A DNA stretch of 6,376 nucleotides. Source: a virus. Its lineage: Duplodnaviria > Heunggongvirae > Uroviricota > Caudoviricetes. The stretch lies in IMG/VR virus record IMGVR_UViG_2700989365_000005, one strand, 5' to 3'. The position numbers were made by a program, and so were the translations under genes. Positions 1 through 6,376 of this stretch are shown piece by piece; the stretch's first letter is position 1, and each line of letters starts with the position of its first letter. The notes beneath the pieces are model-generated. The model searched no databases. It was not told the DNA's origin and saw nothing but the letters and a program-made list of their open reading frames with translations.

Positions 1-1
1 C

Positions 2-46
2 TGGCGCACTGACGGTTTCATCGTGGGTGTCGGTTATAAATTCTGA
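2..46 (+). CDS. lom: 3' end of upstream gene (start outside window); C-terminus of a Lom/Ail/OmpX-family outer-membrane beta-barrel protein
   Basis: Frame starting at base 2 reads WRTDGFIVGVGYKF followed by TGA at 44-46. A ...GVGYKF C-terminus ending in Phe is typical of Ail/Lom/OmpX beta-barrels, and lom lies directly upstream of stf in phage lambda (gene order recalled, not searched). The call rests on 14 residues only. Confidence 0.5.
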   Translation, partial: WRTDGFIVGVGYKF

Positions 47-73
47 TTAGCCAGGTAACACAGTGTTATGACA

Positions 74-99
74 GCCCGCCGGTTCAGGCGGGCTTTTTT
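74..99 (+). terminator. Rho-independent terminator downstream of lom (stem GCCCGCC / GGCGGGC, loop GGTTCA, then TTTTTT)
   Basis: Perfect 7-bp GC-rich inverted repeat 74-80 / 87-93 with a 6-nt loop, followed directly by a T6 tract at 94-99; it sits 28 nt after the TGA stop. Confidence 0.75.
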
Positions 100-101
100 G
101 T

Positions 102-107
102 GGGGTG
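102..107 (+). promoter_or_regulatory. Shine-Dalgarno-like GGGGTG upstream of the stf ATG (identical copies at 1182-1187 and 2296-2301)
   Basis: Purine-rich GGGGTG ends 3 nt before ATG 111 (GGGG core about 5 nt upstream). Spacing is short, so this is only a plausible RBS. Confidence 0.4.
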
Positions 108-110
108 AAT

Positions 111-1117
111 ATGGCAGTAAAGATTTCAGGTGTACTGAAAGACGGCACAGGAAAACCGGTACAGAACTGCACAATCCAGCTGAAAGCAAAACGTAACAGC
201 ACCACGGTGGTGGTGAACACGCTGGCCTCAGAAAATCCGGATGAAGCCGGGCGTTACAGCATGGACGTTGAGTACGGTCAGTACAGCGTTATTCTGTTGG
301 TGGAAGGATTCCCGCCGTCACATGCCGGGACCATCACCGTGTATGAAGATTCCCGACCCGGTACGCTGAATGATTTTCTCGGTGCCATGACGGAGGATGA
401 TGCCCGTCCGGAGGCACTGCGCCGTTTTGAGCTGATGGTGGAAGAGGTGGCGCGTAACGCGTCCGCGGTGGCACAGAACACGGCAGCCGCGAAGAAATCA
501 GCCAGCGATGCCAGCACATCAGCCCGTGAGGCGGCAACCCATGCGACTGATGCTGCAGGCTCAGCGCGTGCAGCCAGCACGTCAGCCGGACAGGCCGCGA
601 CTTCGGCTCAGGAGGCGTCTTCCAGCGCAGGAACGGCATCAACAAAGGCCACTGAAGCATCAAAAAGTGCTGCCGCTGCAGAGTCCTCAAAAAGCGCGGC
701 GGCTACCAGTGCCGGTGCGGCGAAAACGTTAGAAACGAATGCGGCAGCGTCACAACAATCAGCAGCCACTTCTGCATCCACCGCGACCACGAAAGCGTCA
801 GAAGCTGCCACCTCAGCCCGGGATGCGTCGGCTTCAAAAGAGGCGGCAAAATCATCAGAAACGAACGCATCATCAAGCGCCAGTAGCGCAGCTTCCTCGG
901 CGACGGCGGCTGCAAATTCTGCGAAGGCGGCCAAAACGTCCGAGACGAACGCCAGGTCTTCTGAAACGGCAGCGGGACAGAGTGCCTCAGCTGCGGCAGG
1001 CTCAAAAACAGCGGCTGCGTCGTCTGCCAGCGCCGCGTCAACAAGTGCCGGGCAGGCCTCAGCCAGTGCCACCGCCGCCGGAAAATCGGCAGAAAGCGCC
1101 GCATCATCCGCTTCAAC
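111..1117 (+). CDS. stf: Side tail fibre protein, 5' fragment (copy A); N-terminal domain plus Ala/Ser/Thr-rich shaft, truncated at an N-gap
   Basis: ATG at 111 gives [60 protein letters not shown]..., which I recognise as the N-terminus of lambda Stf (memory, no search). The ORF track starts at GTG 105, but ATG 111 matches the known N-terminus. The frame meets NNN at 1118-1120 and then reads through duplicated intergenic sequence to TAG 1128-1130, so this is not a complete gene. Confidence 0.8.
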
Positions 1118-1120
1118 NNN
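1118..1120. other. Run of 3 N (unknown bases) at the junction between stf copy A and the second copy of the lom-stf intergenic module
   Basis: Literal nnn in the sequence. The sequence before it aligns to 3309-3311 of copy C, and the sequence after it (ttctgattag...) is the lom stop and intergenic region again. Confidence 0.95.
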
Positions 1121-1153
1121 TTCTGATTAGCCAGGTAACACAGTGTTATGACA

Positions 1154-1179
1154 GCCCGCCGGTTCAGGCGGGCTTTTTT
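1154..1179 (+). terminator. Second copy of the lom-stf intrinsic terminator
   Basis: Identical sequence to 74-99, offset by 1080 nt. Confidence 0.7.
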
Positions 1180-1190
1180 GTGGGGTGAAT

Positions 1191-2183
1191 ATGGCAGTAA
1201 AGATTTCAGGTGTACTGAAAGACGGCACAGGAAAACCGGTACAGAACTGCACAATCCAGCTGAAAGCAAAACGTAACAGCACCACGGTGGTGGTGAACAC
1301 GCTGGCCTCAGAAAATCCGGATGAAGCCGGGCGTTACAGCATGGACGTTGAGTACGGTCAGTACAGCGTTATTCTGTTGGTGGAAGGATTCCCGCCGTCA
1401 CATGCCGGGACCATCACTGTGTATGAAGATTCCCGACCCGGTACGCTGAATGATTTTCTCGGTGCCATGACGGAGGATGATGCCCGTCCGGAGGCTCTGC
1501 GCCGTTTTGAACTGATGGTGGAAGAGGTGGCGCGTAACGCGTCCGCGGTGGCACAGAACACGGCAGCCGCGAAGAAGTCAGCCAGTGATGCCGGCACATC
1601 TGCCCGTGAGGCGGCAACCCATGCGACTGATGCTGCAGGCTCAGCGCGTGCAGCCAGCACGTCAGCCGGACAGGCCGCGACTTCGGCTCAGGAGGCGTCT
1701 TCCAGCGCAGGAACGGCATCAACAAAGGCCACTGAAGCATCAAAAAGTGCTGCCGCTGCAGAGTCCTCAAAAAGCGCGGCGGCCACCAGTGCCGGTGCGG
1801 CGAAAACGTCAGAAACGAATGCTGCAGCGTCACAAAAATCAGCAGCCACTTCTGCATCCACTGCGACAACGAAAGCGTCAGAAGCCGCCACTTCAGCCAG
1901 AGATGCGGCGGCCTCCAAAGAGGCGGCAAAATCATCAGAAACGAACGCCTCCACAAGCGCCAGCAGTGCAGCCTCCTCGGCAACGGCGGCAGGAAATTCC
2001 GTGAAGGCGGCAAAAACGTCCGAGACGAATGCTAAGTCTTCTGAAACGGCAGCGGAACAGAGCGCCTCAGCTGCGGCAGACTCTGAGACAGCAGCTGCAT
2101 CATCGGCCCGTGAGGCGTCCATTAAGGCAGAGGAGGCAGCAGTCAGTGCCACCGCCGCCGGAAAATCGGCAGAAAGCGCCGCA
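1191..2183 (+). CDS. stf: Side tail fibre protein, 5' fragment (copy B, diverged allele), truncated at a 21-N gap
   Basis: ATG 1191 with the same SD and N-terminus [12 protein letters not shown].... It is collinear with copy A but carries scattered substitutions (e.g. 1495 t vs 415 a; 1511 a vs 431 g) and a strongly diverged 3' part (about 2040-2150 vs 960-1070; protein ...AEQSASAAADSETAAASSAREASIKAEEAAVSA vs ...[33 protein letters not shown]). The frame runs into the N-run at 2184. Confidence 0.8.
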
Positions 2184-2204
2184 NNNNNNNNNNNNNNNNN
2201 NNNN
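2184..2204. other. Run of 21 N at the junction between stf copy B and the third copy of the lom 3' end
   Basis: Literal N-run, followed at 2205 by gacggtttcatcgtgggtgtcggttataagttctga, the lom C-terminus again. Confidence 0.95.
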
Positions 2205-2240
2205 GACGGTTTCATCGTGGGTGTCGGTTATAAGTTCTGA
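2205..2240 (+). CDS. lom: Second copy of the lom 3' end (last 11 codons DGFIVGVGYKF, stop TGA 2238-2240); fragment only
   Basis: Same peptide as 11-46 but with AAG instead of AAA for Lys (2231-2233 vs 38-40), so it is a distinct allele of the lom terminus. Confidence 0.5.
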   Translation, partial: DGFIVGVGYKF

Positions 2241-2267
2241 TTAGCCAGGTAACACAGTGTTATGACA

Positions 2268-2293
2268 GCCCGCCGGTTCAGGCGGGCTTTTTT
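2268..2293 (+). terminator. Third copy of the lom-stf intrinsic terminator
   Basis: Identical to 74-99, offset by 2194 nt. Confidence 0.7.
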
Positions 2294-2304
2294 GTGGGGT
2301 GAAT

Positions 2305-4508
2305 ATGGCAGTAAAGATTTCAGGTGTACTGAAAGACGGCACAGGAAAACCGGTACAGAACTGCACAATCCAGCTGAAAGCAAAACGTAACAGCACCACG
2401 GTGGTGGTGAACACGCTGGCCTCAGAAAATCCGGATGAAGCCGGGCGTTACAGCATGGACGTTGAGTACGGTCAGTACAGCGTTATTCTGTTGGTGGAAG
2501 GATTCCCGCCGTCACATGCCGGGACCATCACCGTGTATGAAGATTCCCGACCCGGTACGCTGAATGATTTTCTCGGTGCCATGACGGAGGATGATGCCCG
2601 TCCGGAGGCACTGCGCCGTTTTGAGCTGATGGTGGAAGAGGTGGCGCGTAACGCGTCCGCGGTGGCACAGAACACGGCAGCCGCGAAGAAATCAGCCAGC
2701 GATGCCAGCACATCAGCCCGTGAGGCGGCAACCCATGCGACTGATGCTGCAGATTCAGCACGTGCAGCCAGCACGTCAGCCGGACAGGCCGCTTCGTCGG
2801 CTCAGTCAGCGTCTTCCAGCGCAGGAACGGCATCAACAAAGGCCACTGAAGCCTCAAAAAGTGCTGCCGCTGCAGAGTCCTCAAAAAGCGCGGCGGCTAC
2901 CAGTGCCGGTGCGGCGAAAACGTTAGAAACGAATGCGGCAGCGTCACAACAATCAGCAGCCACTTCTGCATCCACCGCGACCACGAAAGCGTCAGAAGCT
3001 GCCACCTCAGCCCGGGATGCGTCGGCTTCAAAAGAGGCGGCAAAATCATCAGAAACGAACGCATCATCAAGCGCCAGTAGCGCAGCTTCCTCGGCGACGG
3101 CGGCTGCAAATTCTGCGAAGGCGGCCAAAACGTCCGAGACGAACGCCAGGTCTTCTGAAACGGCAGCGGGACAGAGTGCCTCAGCTGCGGCAGGCTCAAA
3201 AACAGCGGCTGCGTCGTCTGCCAGCGCCGCGTCAACAAGTGCCGGGCAGGCCTCAGCCAGTGCCACCGCCGCCGGAAAATCGGCAGAAAGCGCCGCATCA
3301 TCCGCTTCAACAGCCACAACGAAGGCTGGCGAAGCCACTGAGCAGGCCACGGCAGCAGCGAGGTCAGCTTCCGCAGCGAAGACATCCGAAACGAACGCGA
3401 AAGCGTCGGAAACCAGCGCAGAATCCTCAAAAACGGCTGCCGCATCGTCCGCCAGTTCGGCGGCGTCATCGGCATCATCGGCGTCTGCTTCAAAAGATGA
3501 GGCGACCAGACAGGCGTCAGCAGCGAAGGGCAGCGCCACGACGGCATCCACGAAGGCGACAGAGGCTGCTGGTAGTGCGACGGCAGCAGCTCAGAGCAAA
3601 AGTACGGCGGAATCTGCAGCAACGCGCGCTGAGACAGCGGCAAAACGGGCAGAGGATATTGCATCCGCCGTGGCGCTTGAGGATGCGAGCACGACGAAAA
3701 AGGGGATAGTACAGCTCAGTAGTGCGACTAACAGCACTTCCGAGTCACTGGCGGCAACACCAAAAGCCGTTAAGGCCGCGTATGACCTGGCTAACGGGAA
3801 ATACACCGCACAGGATGCAACGACAGCACAGAAAGGGATAATCCAGCTAAGCAGCGCGACCAACAGCACGTCTGAAACGCTGGCGGCAACGCCAAAGGCA
3901 GTAAAAGCAGCCAATGACAATGCTGAGAAACGTCTGCAGAAAGATCAGAACGGTGCGGATATCCCTGGCAAAGACACCTTTACGAAAAATATTGGTGCCT
4001 GCCGTGCCTTCGGTGGGTCAGTAAGCACAACAACAGGAAACTGGACGACTGCACAGTTTATCGAGTGGCTGGATTCTCAGGGAGCATTTAACCATCCATA
4101 CTGGATGTGCAAGGGTTCCTGGTCTTATGGCAATAATAAAATCATTACTGATACTGGCTGCGGTAATATTCATCTCGCCGGAGCTGTCATTGAAGTAATG
4201 GGGATAAAGTCAGCGATGACGATCCGCATTACCACTCCGACCACATCCAGCGGTGGCGGAACAACCAACGCCCAGTTTACCTATATTAATCACGGAACAG
4301 ATTATTCACCTGGCTGGCGAAGGGACTATAACTCCAGAAATAAGCCAACGGCATCAGAGATCGGGGCGCTACCGTCAGGTGGAACAGCAGTATCATCAGT
4401 TAATCTGGCTTCAAAAGGTCGGGTAGCCGCGCTGACAGACAATACGCAGGGGGCAGCAGGTCTTGAGTTATACGAGGTGTATAACAACGGATATCCAACA
4501 GCGTATGG
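2305..4508 (+). CDS. stf: Side tail fibre protein variant (copy C): lambda-Stf-like N-terminus and shaft, two 44-aa fibre repeats, then an alternative C-terminal tip domain; no stop before the junction at 4509
   Basis: ATG 2305 with the same SD and N-terminus. My manual translation finds no in-frame stop to 4508. Because GGN still encodes Gly, the frame formally continues across the N at 4509 into segment D and on to the window end, so a gene caller would report one ORF 2305..>6376. I split it at 4509 because 4510 onward re-duplicates 3367-3923. Confidence 0.75.
3700..3923 (+). repeat. Two tandem 132-nt (44-aa) tail-fibre repeats in copy C ([44 protein letters not shown]; second copy ends at ...[10 protein letters not shown])
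   Basis: Units start at 3700 and 3832, in frame. The [14 protein letters not shown] motif is characteristic of the phage tail-fibre repeat found in lambda Stf and related fibres (recalled). Confidence 0.8.
3924..4508 (+). other. Alternative C-terminal (putative receptor-binding tip) domain of stf copy C; lower GC, Cys-containing, unlike the lambda Stf C-terminus
   Basis: Translation [93 protein letters not shown]...[16 protein letters not shown]. It diverges from segment D immediately after the shared ...[10 protein letters not shown]. It is visibly more AT-rich than the shaft. I do not recognise the family. Confidence 0.55.
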
Positions 4509-4509
4509 N
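4509..4509. other. Single N marking a junction between the alternative tip domain and a re-entry into shaft sequence
   Basis: Literal n. The sequence from 4510 aligns to 3367 onward of copy C with scattered substitutions. Confidence 0.9.
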
Positions 4510-6376
4510 GCTTCCGCAGCGAAGACATCCGAAACGAACGCGAAAGCGTCGGAAACCAGCGCAGAATCCTCAAAAACGGCTGCCGCATCGTCCGCCAGTT
4601 CGGCGGCGTCATCGGCATCATCTGCGTCTGCTTCAAAAGATGAGGCGACCAGACAGGCGTCAGCAGCGAGGGGCAGCGCCACGACGGCATCCACGAAGGC
4701 GACAGAGGCTGCTGGCAGTGCGGCAGCGGCAGCACAGAGCAAAAGTACGGCGGAATCCGCGGCAACGCGCGCCGAGACAGCAGCAAAACGGGCAGAGGAT
4801 ATTGCATCCGCCGTGGCGCTTGAGGATGCGAGCACGACGAAAAAGGGGATAGTACAGCTCAGCAGTGCGACCAACAGCACTTCCGAGTCACAGGCGGCAA
4901 CGCCAAAAGCCGTTAAGGCCGCGTATGACCTGGCTAACGGGAAATACACCGCACAGGATGCAACGACAGCACAGAAAGGGATAGTTCAGCTCAGCAGTGC
5001 GACTAACAGCACTTCCGAGTCACAGGCGGCAACGCCAAAAGCCGTTAAGGCCGCGTATGACCTGGCTAACGGGAAATACACCGCACAGGACGCTACGACA
5101 GCACAAAAAGGAATTGTCCAGCTCAGTAGTGCAACCAACAGCACATCTGAAACGCTTGCTGCGACACCGAAAGCAGTGAAAGCAGCTAATGACAATGCGA
5201 ATGGTCGGGTACCTTCTGCCCGTAAGGTGAATGGTAAGGCGCTTTCAGCGGATATAACACTGACGCCGAAAGATATTGGTACGCTTAACTCAACAACAAT
5301 GTCATTCAGCGGTGGTGCTGGTTGGTTCAAATTAGCAACGGTAACCATGCCACAGGCGAGTTCTGTTGTTTCAATTACGTTGATTGGTGGCGCTGGATTT
5401 AACGTGGGGTCACCTCAACAGGCAGGTATATCTGAACTTGTTTTACGTGCAGGTAATGGTAATCCGAAGGGGATTACTGGTGCTTTATGGCAGCGCACAT
5501 TGACAGGGTTTACAAATTTTGCCTGGGTTAATACATCTGGTGATACTTACGATATTTACGTTGCAATCGGAAATTATGCGACTGGTGTAAATATTCAATG
5601 GGATTATACCAGTAATGCCAGCGTGACGATTCATACGTCACCAGCATATTCTGCTAATAAGCCGGAAGGGTTAACGGACGGTACAGTTTATTCACTCTAT
5701 ACGCCATCAGAGCAGTTTTATCCGCCTGGCGCACCAATCCCGTGGCCATCAGATACCGTTCCGTCTGGTTATGCCCTGATGCAGGGGCAGACTTTTGACA
5801 AATCTGCTTACCCGAAACTTGCAGCCGCTTATCCGTCAGGCGTGATCCCTGATATGCGTGGCTGGACGATTAAGGGCAAACCTGCCAGTGGTCGGGCCGT
5901 ATTGTCTCAGGAACAGGACGGCATTAAATCGCATACCCACAGCGCCAGCGCATCCAGTACGGATTTGGGGACGAAAACCACATCGTCGTTTGATTACGGC
6001 ACTAAATCCACGAATAACACTGGTGCGCATACCCATAGTTTAAGTGGCAGCACGAATGCAGCTGGTAATCACAGCCATAGAGATGGCCGTCGATTTAACC
6101 CCAGTGTTTTTAAAGATACTTATCAATATGGTTATACAAGCTCAGGTCAAAATACCTGGGGTGTACAAGGCTCAGTAGGTATGTCTACGGGGTGGTTAGC
6201 GAATACCAGTATAGATGGTAATCATAGCCATTCACTGTCCGGCACAGCAGCATCTGCAGGTGCACACGCGCATACTGTCGGTATTGGTGCTCATACGCAC
6301 TCCGTTGCGATTGGTTCACATGGACACACCATCACCGTTAACGCTGCTGGTAACGCGGAAAACACCGTCAAAAACA
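4510..6376 (+). CDS. stf: Side tail fibre protein, 3' portion (segment D): shaft, three 44-aa fibre repeats, a central domain and a lambda-Stf-like His-rich C-terminal domain; 3' end outside window
   Basis: Same frame as copy C. The C-terminal part reads [76 protein letters not shown]...[21 protein letters not shown], closely matching my memory of the lambda Stf C-terminus, which ends ...[18 protein letters not shown]. The window therefore stops about 10 codons before the expected stop. Confidence 0.8.
4843..5198 (+). repeat. Three tandem 132-nt (44-aa) tail-fibre repeats in segment D (units at 4843, 4975, 5107; last unit partial)
   Basis: Units 1 and 2 are near-identical (SESQAAT...[19 protein letters not shown]). 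Unit 3 (SETLAAT...AANDNA) corresponds to the second unit of copy C. Segment D therefore has one extra repeat unit relative to copy C. Confidence 0.8.
5932..6327 (+). other. Array of seven His-x-His motifs in the C-terminal domain of stf segment D (SHTHS, AHTHS, NHSHR, NHSHS, AHAHT, AHTHS, SHGHT)
   Basis: Read directly from the translation. HxH motifs coordinate metal ions in the trimeric distal tips of some phage tail fibres, for example T4 gp37 (recalled established knowledge). No structure is known to me for this protein. Confidence 0.6.

Follow-up and report, generated by a model that had tools for sequence, protein, structure and literature searches.

We wanted to know whether a long open reading frame in a 6376-nt stretch of DNA, referred to below as the window, represents a real giant tail fibre gene, or whether the single N at position 4509 joins parts of two different genes. 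The frame (2305..6376) comprises 1357 codons without a stop and remains open across the N. The N occupies the third position of a GGN codon (4507-4509), and position 4510 begins a codon in the same frame as position 3367. The initial annotation had stated that the frame is kept through GGN and that the ORF would exceed 1350 codons, and both statements were borne out. In the two other frames the sequence to the right of the N meets a stop at codon 44 or 114.

We observed that positions 4510-5061 repeat positions 3367-3918 with 94.0% identity (33 mismatches, 0 gaps), which is far beyond chance and agrees with the re-duplication described earlier for the sequence after 4509. The 132-nt fibre repeat is involved as well, 3699-3923 matching 4975-5198 at 89%. 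Within the window neither a stop codon nor tfa follows position 4508, as had also been noted.

The window consists of four stf fragments

The window contains three N runs, and exactly at each of the three, homology returns to a stretch lying earlier in the same gene. In this way four pieces are separated (blocks A, B, C and D, Table 1), all of which are side-tail-fibre (stf) sequence of lambdoid prophages. A complete stf is present in none of the four blocks, none of them reaches a stop codon, and tfa is missing from the window. The stf start found at 2305 in block C is also found in blocks A and B.

Blocks A and C are closely similar (99.0% identity of 11-1117 with 2205-3311), and with either of them block B shares 93.5-94.5% identity. 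As a perfect mosaic without private variants, block A follows C at 41-521 and 704-1000 and B at 559-659; its best match among complete genomes reached 98.6%. The ends of the blocks fall in stretches identical between the alleles. The first 113 nt of block D are the same as 3367-3479 of block C, and the last 40 nt of block B are identical to both A and C. Identical stretches as long as 458 nt are shared by A and C, and still the two are present as separate blocks. Nothing within the window accounts for block C ending exactly at 4508.

Table 1. Positions of the blocks, N runs and domains in the window.
Feature	Position	Strand	Remarks
Block A	1..1117	+	lom end, terminator-like hairpin, codons 1-336 of an stf allele, ATG at 111
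NNN join A/B	1118..1120		homology passes from mid-shaft to lom end
Block B	1121..2183	+	lom end and codons 1-331 of a second stf allele, ATG at 1191
21-N join B/C	2184..2204		
Block C	2205..4508	+	lom end, stf codons 1-734 and 2 bases of the next codon
Prophage tail fibre N-terminal domain (PF08400), block C	2305..2706	+	Pfam E = 8e-72, residues 1-134
Shaft and repeat stretch of C, paralogous to the start of D	3367..3918	+	94.0% vs 4510-5061
Middle module of the C-type allele (the "alternative tip" of the initial annotation)	3922..4508	+	cut at 4508
Single N, almost certainly an artificial C/D join between stf of two prophages	4509		jump back of 1142 nt
Block D	4510..6376	+	about codons 355-975 of B-type stf; ends 32 nt short of the natural stop codon
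Three copies of the 132-nt Phage_fiber_2 repeat, block D	4823..5198	+	
Phage tail Collar domain (PF07484), block D	5728..5871	+	residues 407-454 of the D translation, E = 3e-12

Each flank of the N has another natural neighbour

Block C was present in one collinear piece in 663 complete genomes, with identity of up to 98.5%. Its right end is crossed by the peptide ...TAYG|NIIHLKG..., and 817 of the 5426 complete E. coli genomes contain this peptide contiguously. After ...TAYG the natural C-type stf goes on with NIIHLKGMTAVG; the sequence of this continuation across 4508 is TATGGAAATATCATTCACC. In E. coli a7, the gene of which is 99.8% identical, 289 further residues (collar and T4-gp37-like tip) come before the stop codon, and tfa comes after it; the C-type gene of strain 190 has 273 further residues past the end of block C. 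Residues 794-1008 of natural C-type Stf matched the structure of T4 gp37 (PDB 2xgf, E = 5e-86).

Block C is thus cut in the middle of the gene. The initial annotation had placed the end of a tip domain at 4508, which is wrong, as the ORF of a7 runs 289 residues further. It had also proposed to look for a stop codon and a chaperone gene directly after ...TAYG; in fact the stop codon and tfa are reached only after about 270-290 further codons.

At least 12 complete genomes have blocks B and D on the same strand, separated by exactly 69 nt (GE3, RM10466, 2013C-3181, 00-3076, 2015C-3905, 2014C-3338, 13P460A, 2012C-4431, KSC207, XH990, D5 and ECC-1470; the spacing was checked in GE3). The stretch between them reads TCATCCGCTTCAAC...GCGAGGTC[T/A]. 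Block B, these 69 nt, block D and the next 32 nt make a single Stf ORF of 986 aa, which differs from the Stf of GE3 in 4 residues. Block B was 99.5-99.6% identical to complete genomes in which D comes 69 nt later, and more than 15 complete genomes matched block D at 99.7% identity. As judged from sequence comparison, D is the continuation of B and not of C, and B is its true 5' partner.

In strains 190 and EC23-1020, a single chromosome has its C-type and D-type genes in different prophages, with more than 1 Mb between them. Matches to these blocks occurred at up to 15 places per complete E. coli genome, the median being 2-3.

The C/D junction was not found in the collections searched

The junction query (4400-4700) gave no contiguous match in the 5426 complete E. 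coli genomes. Both halves of the junction came together in only three records (H16-18), within 442 nt. We rejected these records as carriers of the fusion; in them the shaft precedes the module, as in natural genes, within a pseudogene that has an internal deletion. With the N treated as a wildcard, the exact junction had 0 matches in GTDB species genomes, IMG/VR and JGI metagenomes, and no contiguous match was obtained among 50,697 GenBank phage records. The junction peptide was covered to 47% at most by any protein in a database of 5.8 billion proteins, and none of these spans the join. Partial Stf fragments were common in public draft assemblies, on contigs of 400-2200 nt.

All three N runs sit exactly at breaks in collinearity with reference sequences. 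Finished genomes lack the junction and contain the natural continuation of each flank, and no independent sequence was found with defined contiguous bases across it.

Domain content of blocks C and D

In block C a Pfam scan identified phage_tail_N and two Phage_fiber_2 domains (two copies of the 132-nt repeat, at 3680-3923); the block also contains an Ala/Ser-rich shaft and the truncated middle module. Two features characteristic of Stf, the PF08400 N-terminus and Phage_fiber_2 repeats after an Ala/Ser-rich shaft, were therefore present. Neither Collar nor a gp37-like tip was found in block C, and so the long ORF, contrary to what had been supposed, does not carry two C-terminal-type domains. 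In block D we found three Phage_fiber_2 domains, Collar and Phage_fiber, together with a shaft, a different middle module and a gp37-like His-x-His tip. The Pfam scan gave no match for the D-type middle module.

The first sub-domain of the C-type middle module (window ~3950-4430) matched residues 178-336 of PDB 8ju3 (E about 1e-78). The second sub-domain, which is the one cut by the N, had no PDB sequence match even at E <= 10, and Pfam Gp34_trimer scored 19.6 bits on the C-type module, below the cut-off of 27; for these reasons we can only infer that block C is cut mid-domain. An AlphaFold2 single-sequence model of the natural fragment across ...TAYGNIIHLKG... was of low confidence (pLDDT 32.9).

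Natural full stf genes have exactly one Collar and one tip each, and those considered here encode 986, 1008 and 1092 aa, as compared with 1357 codons in the ORF of the window. This ORF is longer than the natural genes only because two fragments are concatenated. Taken as one gene, it does not have the arrangement of a single Collar and gp37-like His-x-His tip followed by a stop: neither Collar nor tip comes after its first set of modules, and it has no stop. If they are regarded as parts of two genes, the pieces agree with the Stf architecture.

Origin of the join

We consider it almost certain that the window is a short scaffold, or an N-spaced concatenation, of four repeat contigs, and that 4509 is a non-biological join; the evidence for this comes from comparison of sequences. 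All four contigs would derive from paralogous stf genes of lambdoid prophages of Escherichia coli. Block C, the 5' three-quarters of one stf, broken off in its distal half, lies to the left of 4509; to the right lies block D, which makes up the distal two-thirds of a different stf with B as its true 5' part. The pseudo-ORF of 1357 codons would result from D starting inside coding sequence and happening to be in phase, for which the chance is one in three. We infer that a paired-read scaffolder chained near-identical repeat contigs and that these came from one polylysogenic genome. The initial annotation had interpreted 4509 as a join of two stf alleles. The absence of the junction everywhere searched, the continuation of C in 817 genomes and the collinearity of B and D in at least 12 all uphold this interpretation, and the comparison with complete stf genes which it had recommended recovered the natural neighbours of both flanks.

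It is also conceivable, though unlikely, that the join is artificial and the alleles belong to several E. coli strains mixed in a metagenome or a contaminated culture, or were concatenated deliberately with N spacers. The three non-identical 5' ends (A, B and C) point in this direction, and a perfect B/C mosaic without private variants, such as block A, would be expected of a chimeric consensus of mixed templates; the match of A to any complete genome, 98.6% at best, is in line with this. However, polylysogeny suffices to explain several alleles, given the number of matching places per complete E. coli genome, and C-type and B/D-type genes occur together in single chromosomes. The lengths of the N runs (3, 21 and 1) are presumably gap estimates and not fixed spacers, which argues against concatenation.

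A real fusion would have come from unequal recombination between stf copies in this isolate, giving a tandem partial duplication in which the N is an uncalled base. The frame is indeed kept across the N and open for its whole length, and it is documented that lambda and resident prophages recombine homologously at their stf genes (PMC3945230). Yet all three N runs are at homology jumps, a placement that random ambiguous bases would not be expected to show. At the end of the left side there is no homology to the shaft, and the join is therefore not a homologous crossover. Every collection searched lacks the junction, D has a far better partner in B, and preservation of the frame had a prior chance of one in three. 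We regard such a fusion as highly improbable. The same holds for a version private to this isolate, in which a fibre of ~1370 residues would have two shaft/repeat regions and an internal truncated S-like module.

The least credible reading, to which we attach practically no weight, is that a Pin-type invertase shuffles fibre cassettes and the junction is one real configuration in the population: pinQ/pinR are located two genes downstream of the D-type stf in strains 190 and GE3, and invertase-driven exchange of stf segments has been discussed (PMC3945230), but we rejected it because there are no meaningful inverted repeats within the window and the duplicated segments are direct, and in addition the complete genomes examined have a single stf-tfa-pin arrangement with no alternative cassette, and the junction is absent from all databases searched.

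In summary, the double-headed giant fibre gene is not real and is an ordinary scaffolding artefact. If true, the fusion would be an unusual fibre architecture; nothing supports it. The value of the analysis lies mainly in quality control. With the N read as X or Gly, automated gene prediction would yield a fibre exceeding 1350 residues, and chimeras of this kind contaminate protein databases as well as predictions of host range from tail-fibre modules. The window illustrates how short-read assembly is defeated by prophage stf genes that are mosaic and multi-copy, and that the correct pairing, in which D follows B after 69 nt, is recoverable from finished genomes.

Comparison with known systems

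The blocks correspond to Stf of lambda (Ur-lambda) and to its prophage paralogues StfR (Rac) and StfQ (Qin), each of which is followed by the assembly chaperone Tfa. As in lambda Stf, the order at the matching loci of complete genomes is J - lom - stf - tfa, with tfa downstream of both C-type and D-type stf. The PF08400 N-terminus, Phage_fiber_2 repeats, Collar and His-x-His C-terminus are also shared with lambda Stf, and the D-type locus adjoins pinQ/ydfK, like the Qin prophage. Unlike lambda-type Stf loci, the window contains fragments only, with no stop and no tfa.

Block D has the same Collar and His-x-His region as T4 gp37 (PDB 2xgf). Block C stops before that region, and its ...TAYG end is therefore not a receptor-binding tip. 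The first sub-domain of the C-type middle module is similar to Tail fiber protein S / S' (PDB 8ju3; 5yvq); unlike in S / S', the C-type module is internal, and in natural genes the collar and gp37-like tip come after it.

Unlike the output of pure de Bruijn assembly, for which this would be unusual, long identical stretches are kept in both A and C, and the simple graph picture gives no explanation of it. The window resembles repeat-induced scaffolding errors of short-read data in that the N runs stand at homology jumps, the block ends lie in sequence shared by paralogues, the correct partner (B for D) is identifiable, and the whole record is made of 6376 nt of repeat contigs.

Organization of the window

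Three runs of N split the window into four blocks, designated A (1-1117), B (1121-2183), C (2205-4508) and D (4510-6376). The starts of blocks A, B and C fall within 40 nt of one another, in the final codons of a lom-type gene, and each block continues through a hairpin (AGCCCGCC GGTTCA GGCGGGCT, then TTTTTT) to the start codon (ATG) of a prophage side-tail-fibre gene (stf). Block A is 99.0% identical to C (2205-3311), and B is 93.5-94.5% identical to either of them. Using Pfam, we detected phage_tail_N and two Phage_fiber_2 repeats in block C, and three Phage_fiber_2 repeats, Collar and Phage_fiber in block D. The copy number of Phage_fiber_2 differs by allele, and phage PhiR29_1 apparently has one copy fewer than C.

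Features of the window and their positions
Feature	Location	Positions	Details
N run	between A and B	1118-1120	3 N
N run	between B and C	2184-2204	21 N
N run	between C and D (junction)	4509	1 N
Identical terminator-like hairpin	blocks A, B, C	73-94, 1153-1174, 2267-2288	one per block, between lom stop and stf ATG
132-nt fibre repeat (Phage_fiber_2)	block C	3680-3923	2 copies
132-nt fibre repeat (Phage_fiber_2)	block D	4823-5198	3 copies

The G+C content is about 0.60 in the Ala/Ser-rich shaft and drops to 0.43-0.51 over the two alternative middle modules (3901-4500 and 5101-5700), which is consistent with horizontally exchanged cassettes. Opposite the shaft, on the minus strand at 2802-3664, there are antisense ORFs of 249 and 255 aa, probably a by-product of GC-rich repetitive codon usage.

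Block A had no private variants in 41-1000 when compared with 1121-2183 and 2205-3311. It agreed with C at all variable sites of 41-521 and 704-1000 and with B at 10/10 variable sites of 559-659, and its best match among complete E. coli genomes was 98.6%. This mosaic reflects either true gene conversion between co-resident stf genes, over a patch of approximately 100-180 nt, or a switch from one allele to another in the path taken by the assembler.

The initial annotation had noted a re-duplication after 4509, and this was borne out, as 4510-5061 aligned with 3367-3918 without gaps at 94.0% identity (33 mismatches). Its claim of a frame preserved through GGN, in an ORF of over 1350 codons, was also correct: the N falls at the third position of a GGN codon, 4510 starts in the same codon phase as 3367, and 2305..6376 is open throughout its 1357 codons. 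Read in either of the other phases, block D meets a stop at codon 44 or 114, and the frame across the other two joins reaches the lom stop region and terminates. The open frame across the junction is an accident, with a prior chance of one in three.

Natural stf genes and the end of block C

Natural full genes in complete E. coli genomes have the order J - lom - stf - tfa, tfa being the assembly chaperone gene, and their Stf proteins consist of an N-terminal domain and repeats, followed by one Collar and one His-x-His tip. E. coli a7 is 99.8% identical to window 3300-4508; past the position equivalent to 4508 (...TAYG) its ORF reads on as NIIHLKGMTAVGEGELLIGW... for 289 further residues, which include the Collar and gp37-like regions, and ends at a stop overlapping the tfa start. 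The intact 1008-aa gene of this C type in strain 190 behaves in the same way. A 301-nt probe over the natural continuation of C matched contiguously in 817 of the 5426 complete genomes, and the entire block C was found as one collinear piece in 663. Since the a7 and strain 190 genes run on beyond 4508, the "alternative tip domain" previously placed there is a truncated internal module, and block C is cut in mid-gene and does not stop at a gene end. The chimeric ORF does not therefore hold two C-terminal-type domains, and the stop and chaperone gene expected directly after ...TAYG follow in a7 only after those 289 residues.

For the region at the cut, a single-sequence AlphaFold2 model gave a pLDDT of 32.9, too low to be informative, no sequence relatives of the cut sub-domain were found in the PDB, and Pfam gave only a sub-threshold Gp34_trimer for the module. 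In the natural C-type protein, residues 794-1008 matched the T4 gp37 tip (2xgf, E = 5e-86) and residues 539-722 the solved "Tail fiber protein S,S'" (8ju3). Among complete genomes, a7 is the one closest to the C-type distal half; upstream in its locus (L001, 1528-2705) an IS3-family element truncates the stf 5' end and the J 3' end.

Pairing of blocks B and D

Twelve complete genomes were among the top hits for both B (99.5%) and D (99.7%), and in 12/12 the two matches shared a strand and were separated by exactly 69 nt. In strain GE3 they occupied 4501-5563 and 5633-7499 of locus L006, within a single 2961-nt gene. When the B ORF was joined through the 69 nt of GE3 to block D and completed with the final 32 nt, it formed a single 986-aa ORF with one terminal stop, which differed from GE3 Stf at 4 residues. 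The piece missing between 2183 and 4510 reads in GE3 TCATCCGCTTCAAC...GCGAGGTCT and differs from C 3298-3366 at 4 positions. Blocks B and D belong to a single stf gene, each forming one half of it. The chromosomes of strains 190 and EC23-1020 carry the C-type and the B/D-type gene in separate prophages, more than 1 Mb apart; therefore the order A-B-C-D separates the halves of one gene by a piece of a gene from another prophage.

At the B/D-type locus, tfa is closely followed by a Pin-type recombinase gene, annotated as pinQ or pinR (strain 190, L003 6572-7162; GE3, L006 8204-8794), which adjoins ydfK, as at the Qin prophage position. No alternative invertible cassette was annotated at these two loci.

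Search for the junction in other sequences

None of the 5426 complete E. coli genomes matched probe 4400-4700 contiguously. Both halves of the probe were close together in three records only (strains G1/2, G6/7 and G8), which we rejected as carriers of the junction: the halves stood in natural order, shaft then module end, inside a deleted pseudogene. The exact 42-nt junction pattern, with N as a wildcard, had 0 matches in 185,579 species-representative genomes, IMG/VR and JGI metagenomes. Among GenBank phages, the two that fully covered probe 4300-4720, PhiR29_1 and PhiR29_2, matched it in two separate pieces, which stood in natural order and extended over 1010 nt. A 126-aa junction-centred peptide was never covered above 47% in a collection of 5.8 billion protein sequences. 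Among the hits of this search were many "partial" Stf fragments encoded on contigs of 400-2200 nt, including P0001, which reads ...TAYGNIIHLKG...; stf is routinely shattered in draft assemblies.

Natural deletion derivatives of the stf gene also occur in complete genomes. In the G1/2 pseudogene (L002 4341/4342; also in G6/7 and G8) the shaft is joined directly to the final 101 nt of the C-type module. P0015, a 160-aa protein, has part of the middle module fused to the Tfa chaperone.

Origin of the junction

The earlier reading of 4509 as a join of two stf alleles is supported, as the junction is absent from all the collections searched, C continues naturally and D pairs with B. The "double-headed giant fibre" is not a real feature. 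The first 113 nt of block D are identical to C 3367-3479, and A, B and C agree throughout the last 40 nt of block B. Block ends in sequence common to paralogues are the pattern expected from repeat-broken contigs and paired-read scaffolding: an assembler would have ended its contigs in the repeats, and the near-identical pieces may then have been chained by a scaffolder that used read pairs. Some scaffolders put in a single N where the estimated gap is zero or negative, and the three runs here, of 3, 21 and 1 N, resemble estimated gap sizes.

A mixture of strains, rather than one polylysogenic genome, could have supplied the alleles; such a source would also fit an artefact, and we consider it rather unlikely. 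That the fusion is real and the N an ambiguous base is highly improbable, as it needs a non-homologous join and all three N runs at rearrangement points by chance. An invertase-driven cassette is contradicted by the direct orientation of the duplicated segments and the absence of inverted repeats from the window.

Published work (PMC3945230) documents recombination of lambda stf/tfa with the copies in the Rac and Qin prophages, as well as the mosaic history of stf genes, and the window shows nothing beyond such recombination and mosaicism.
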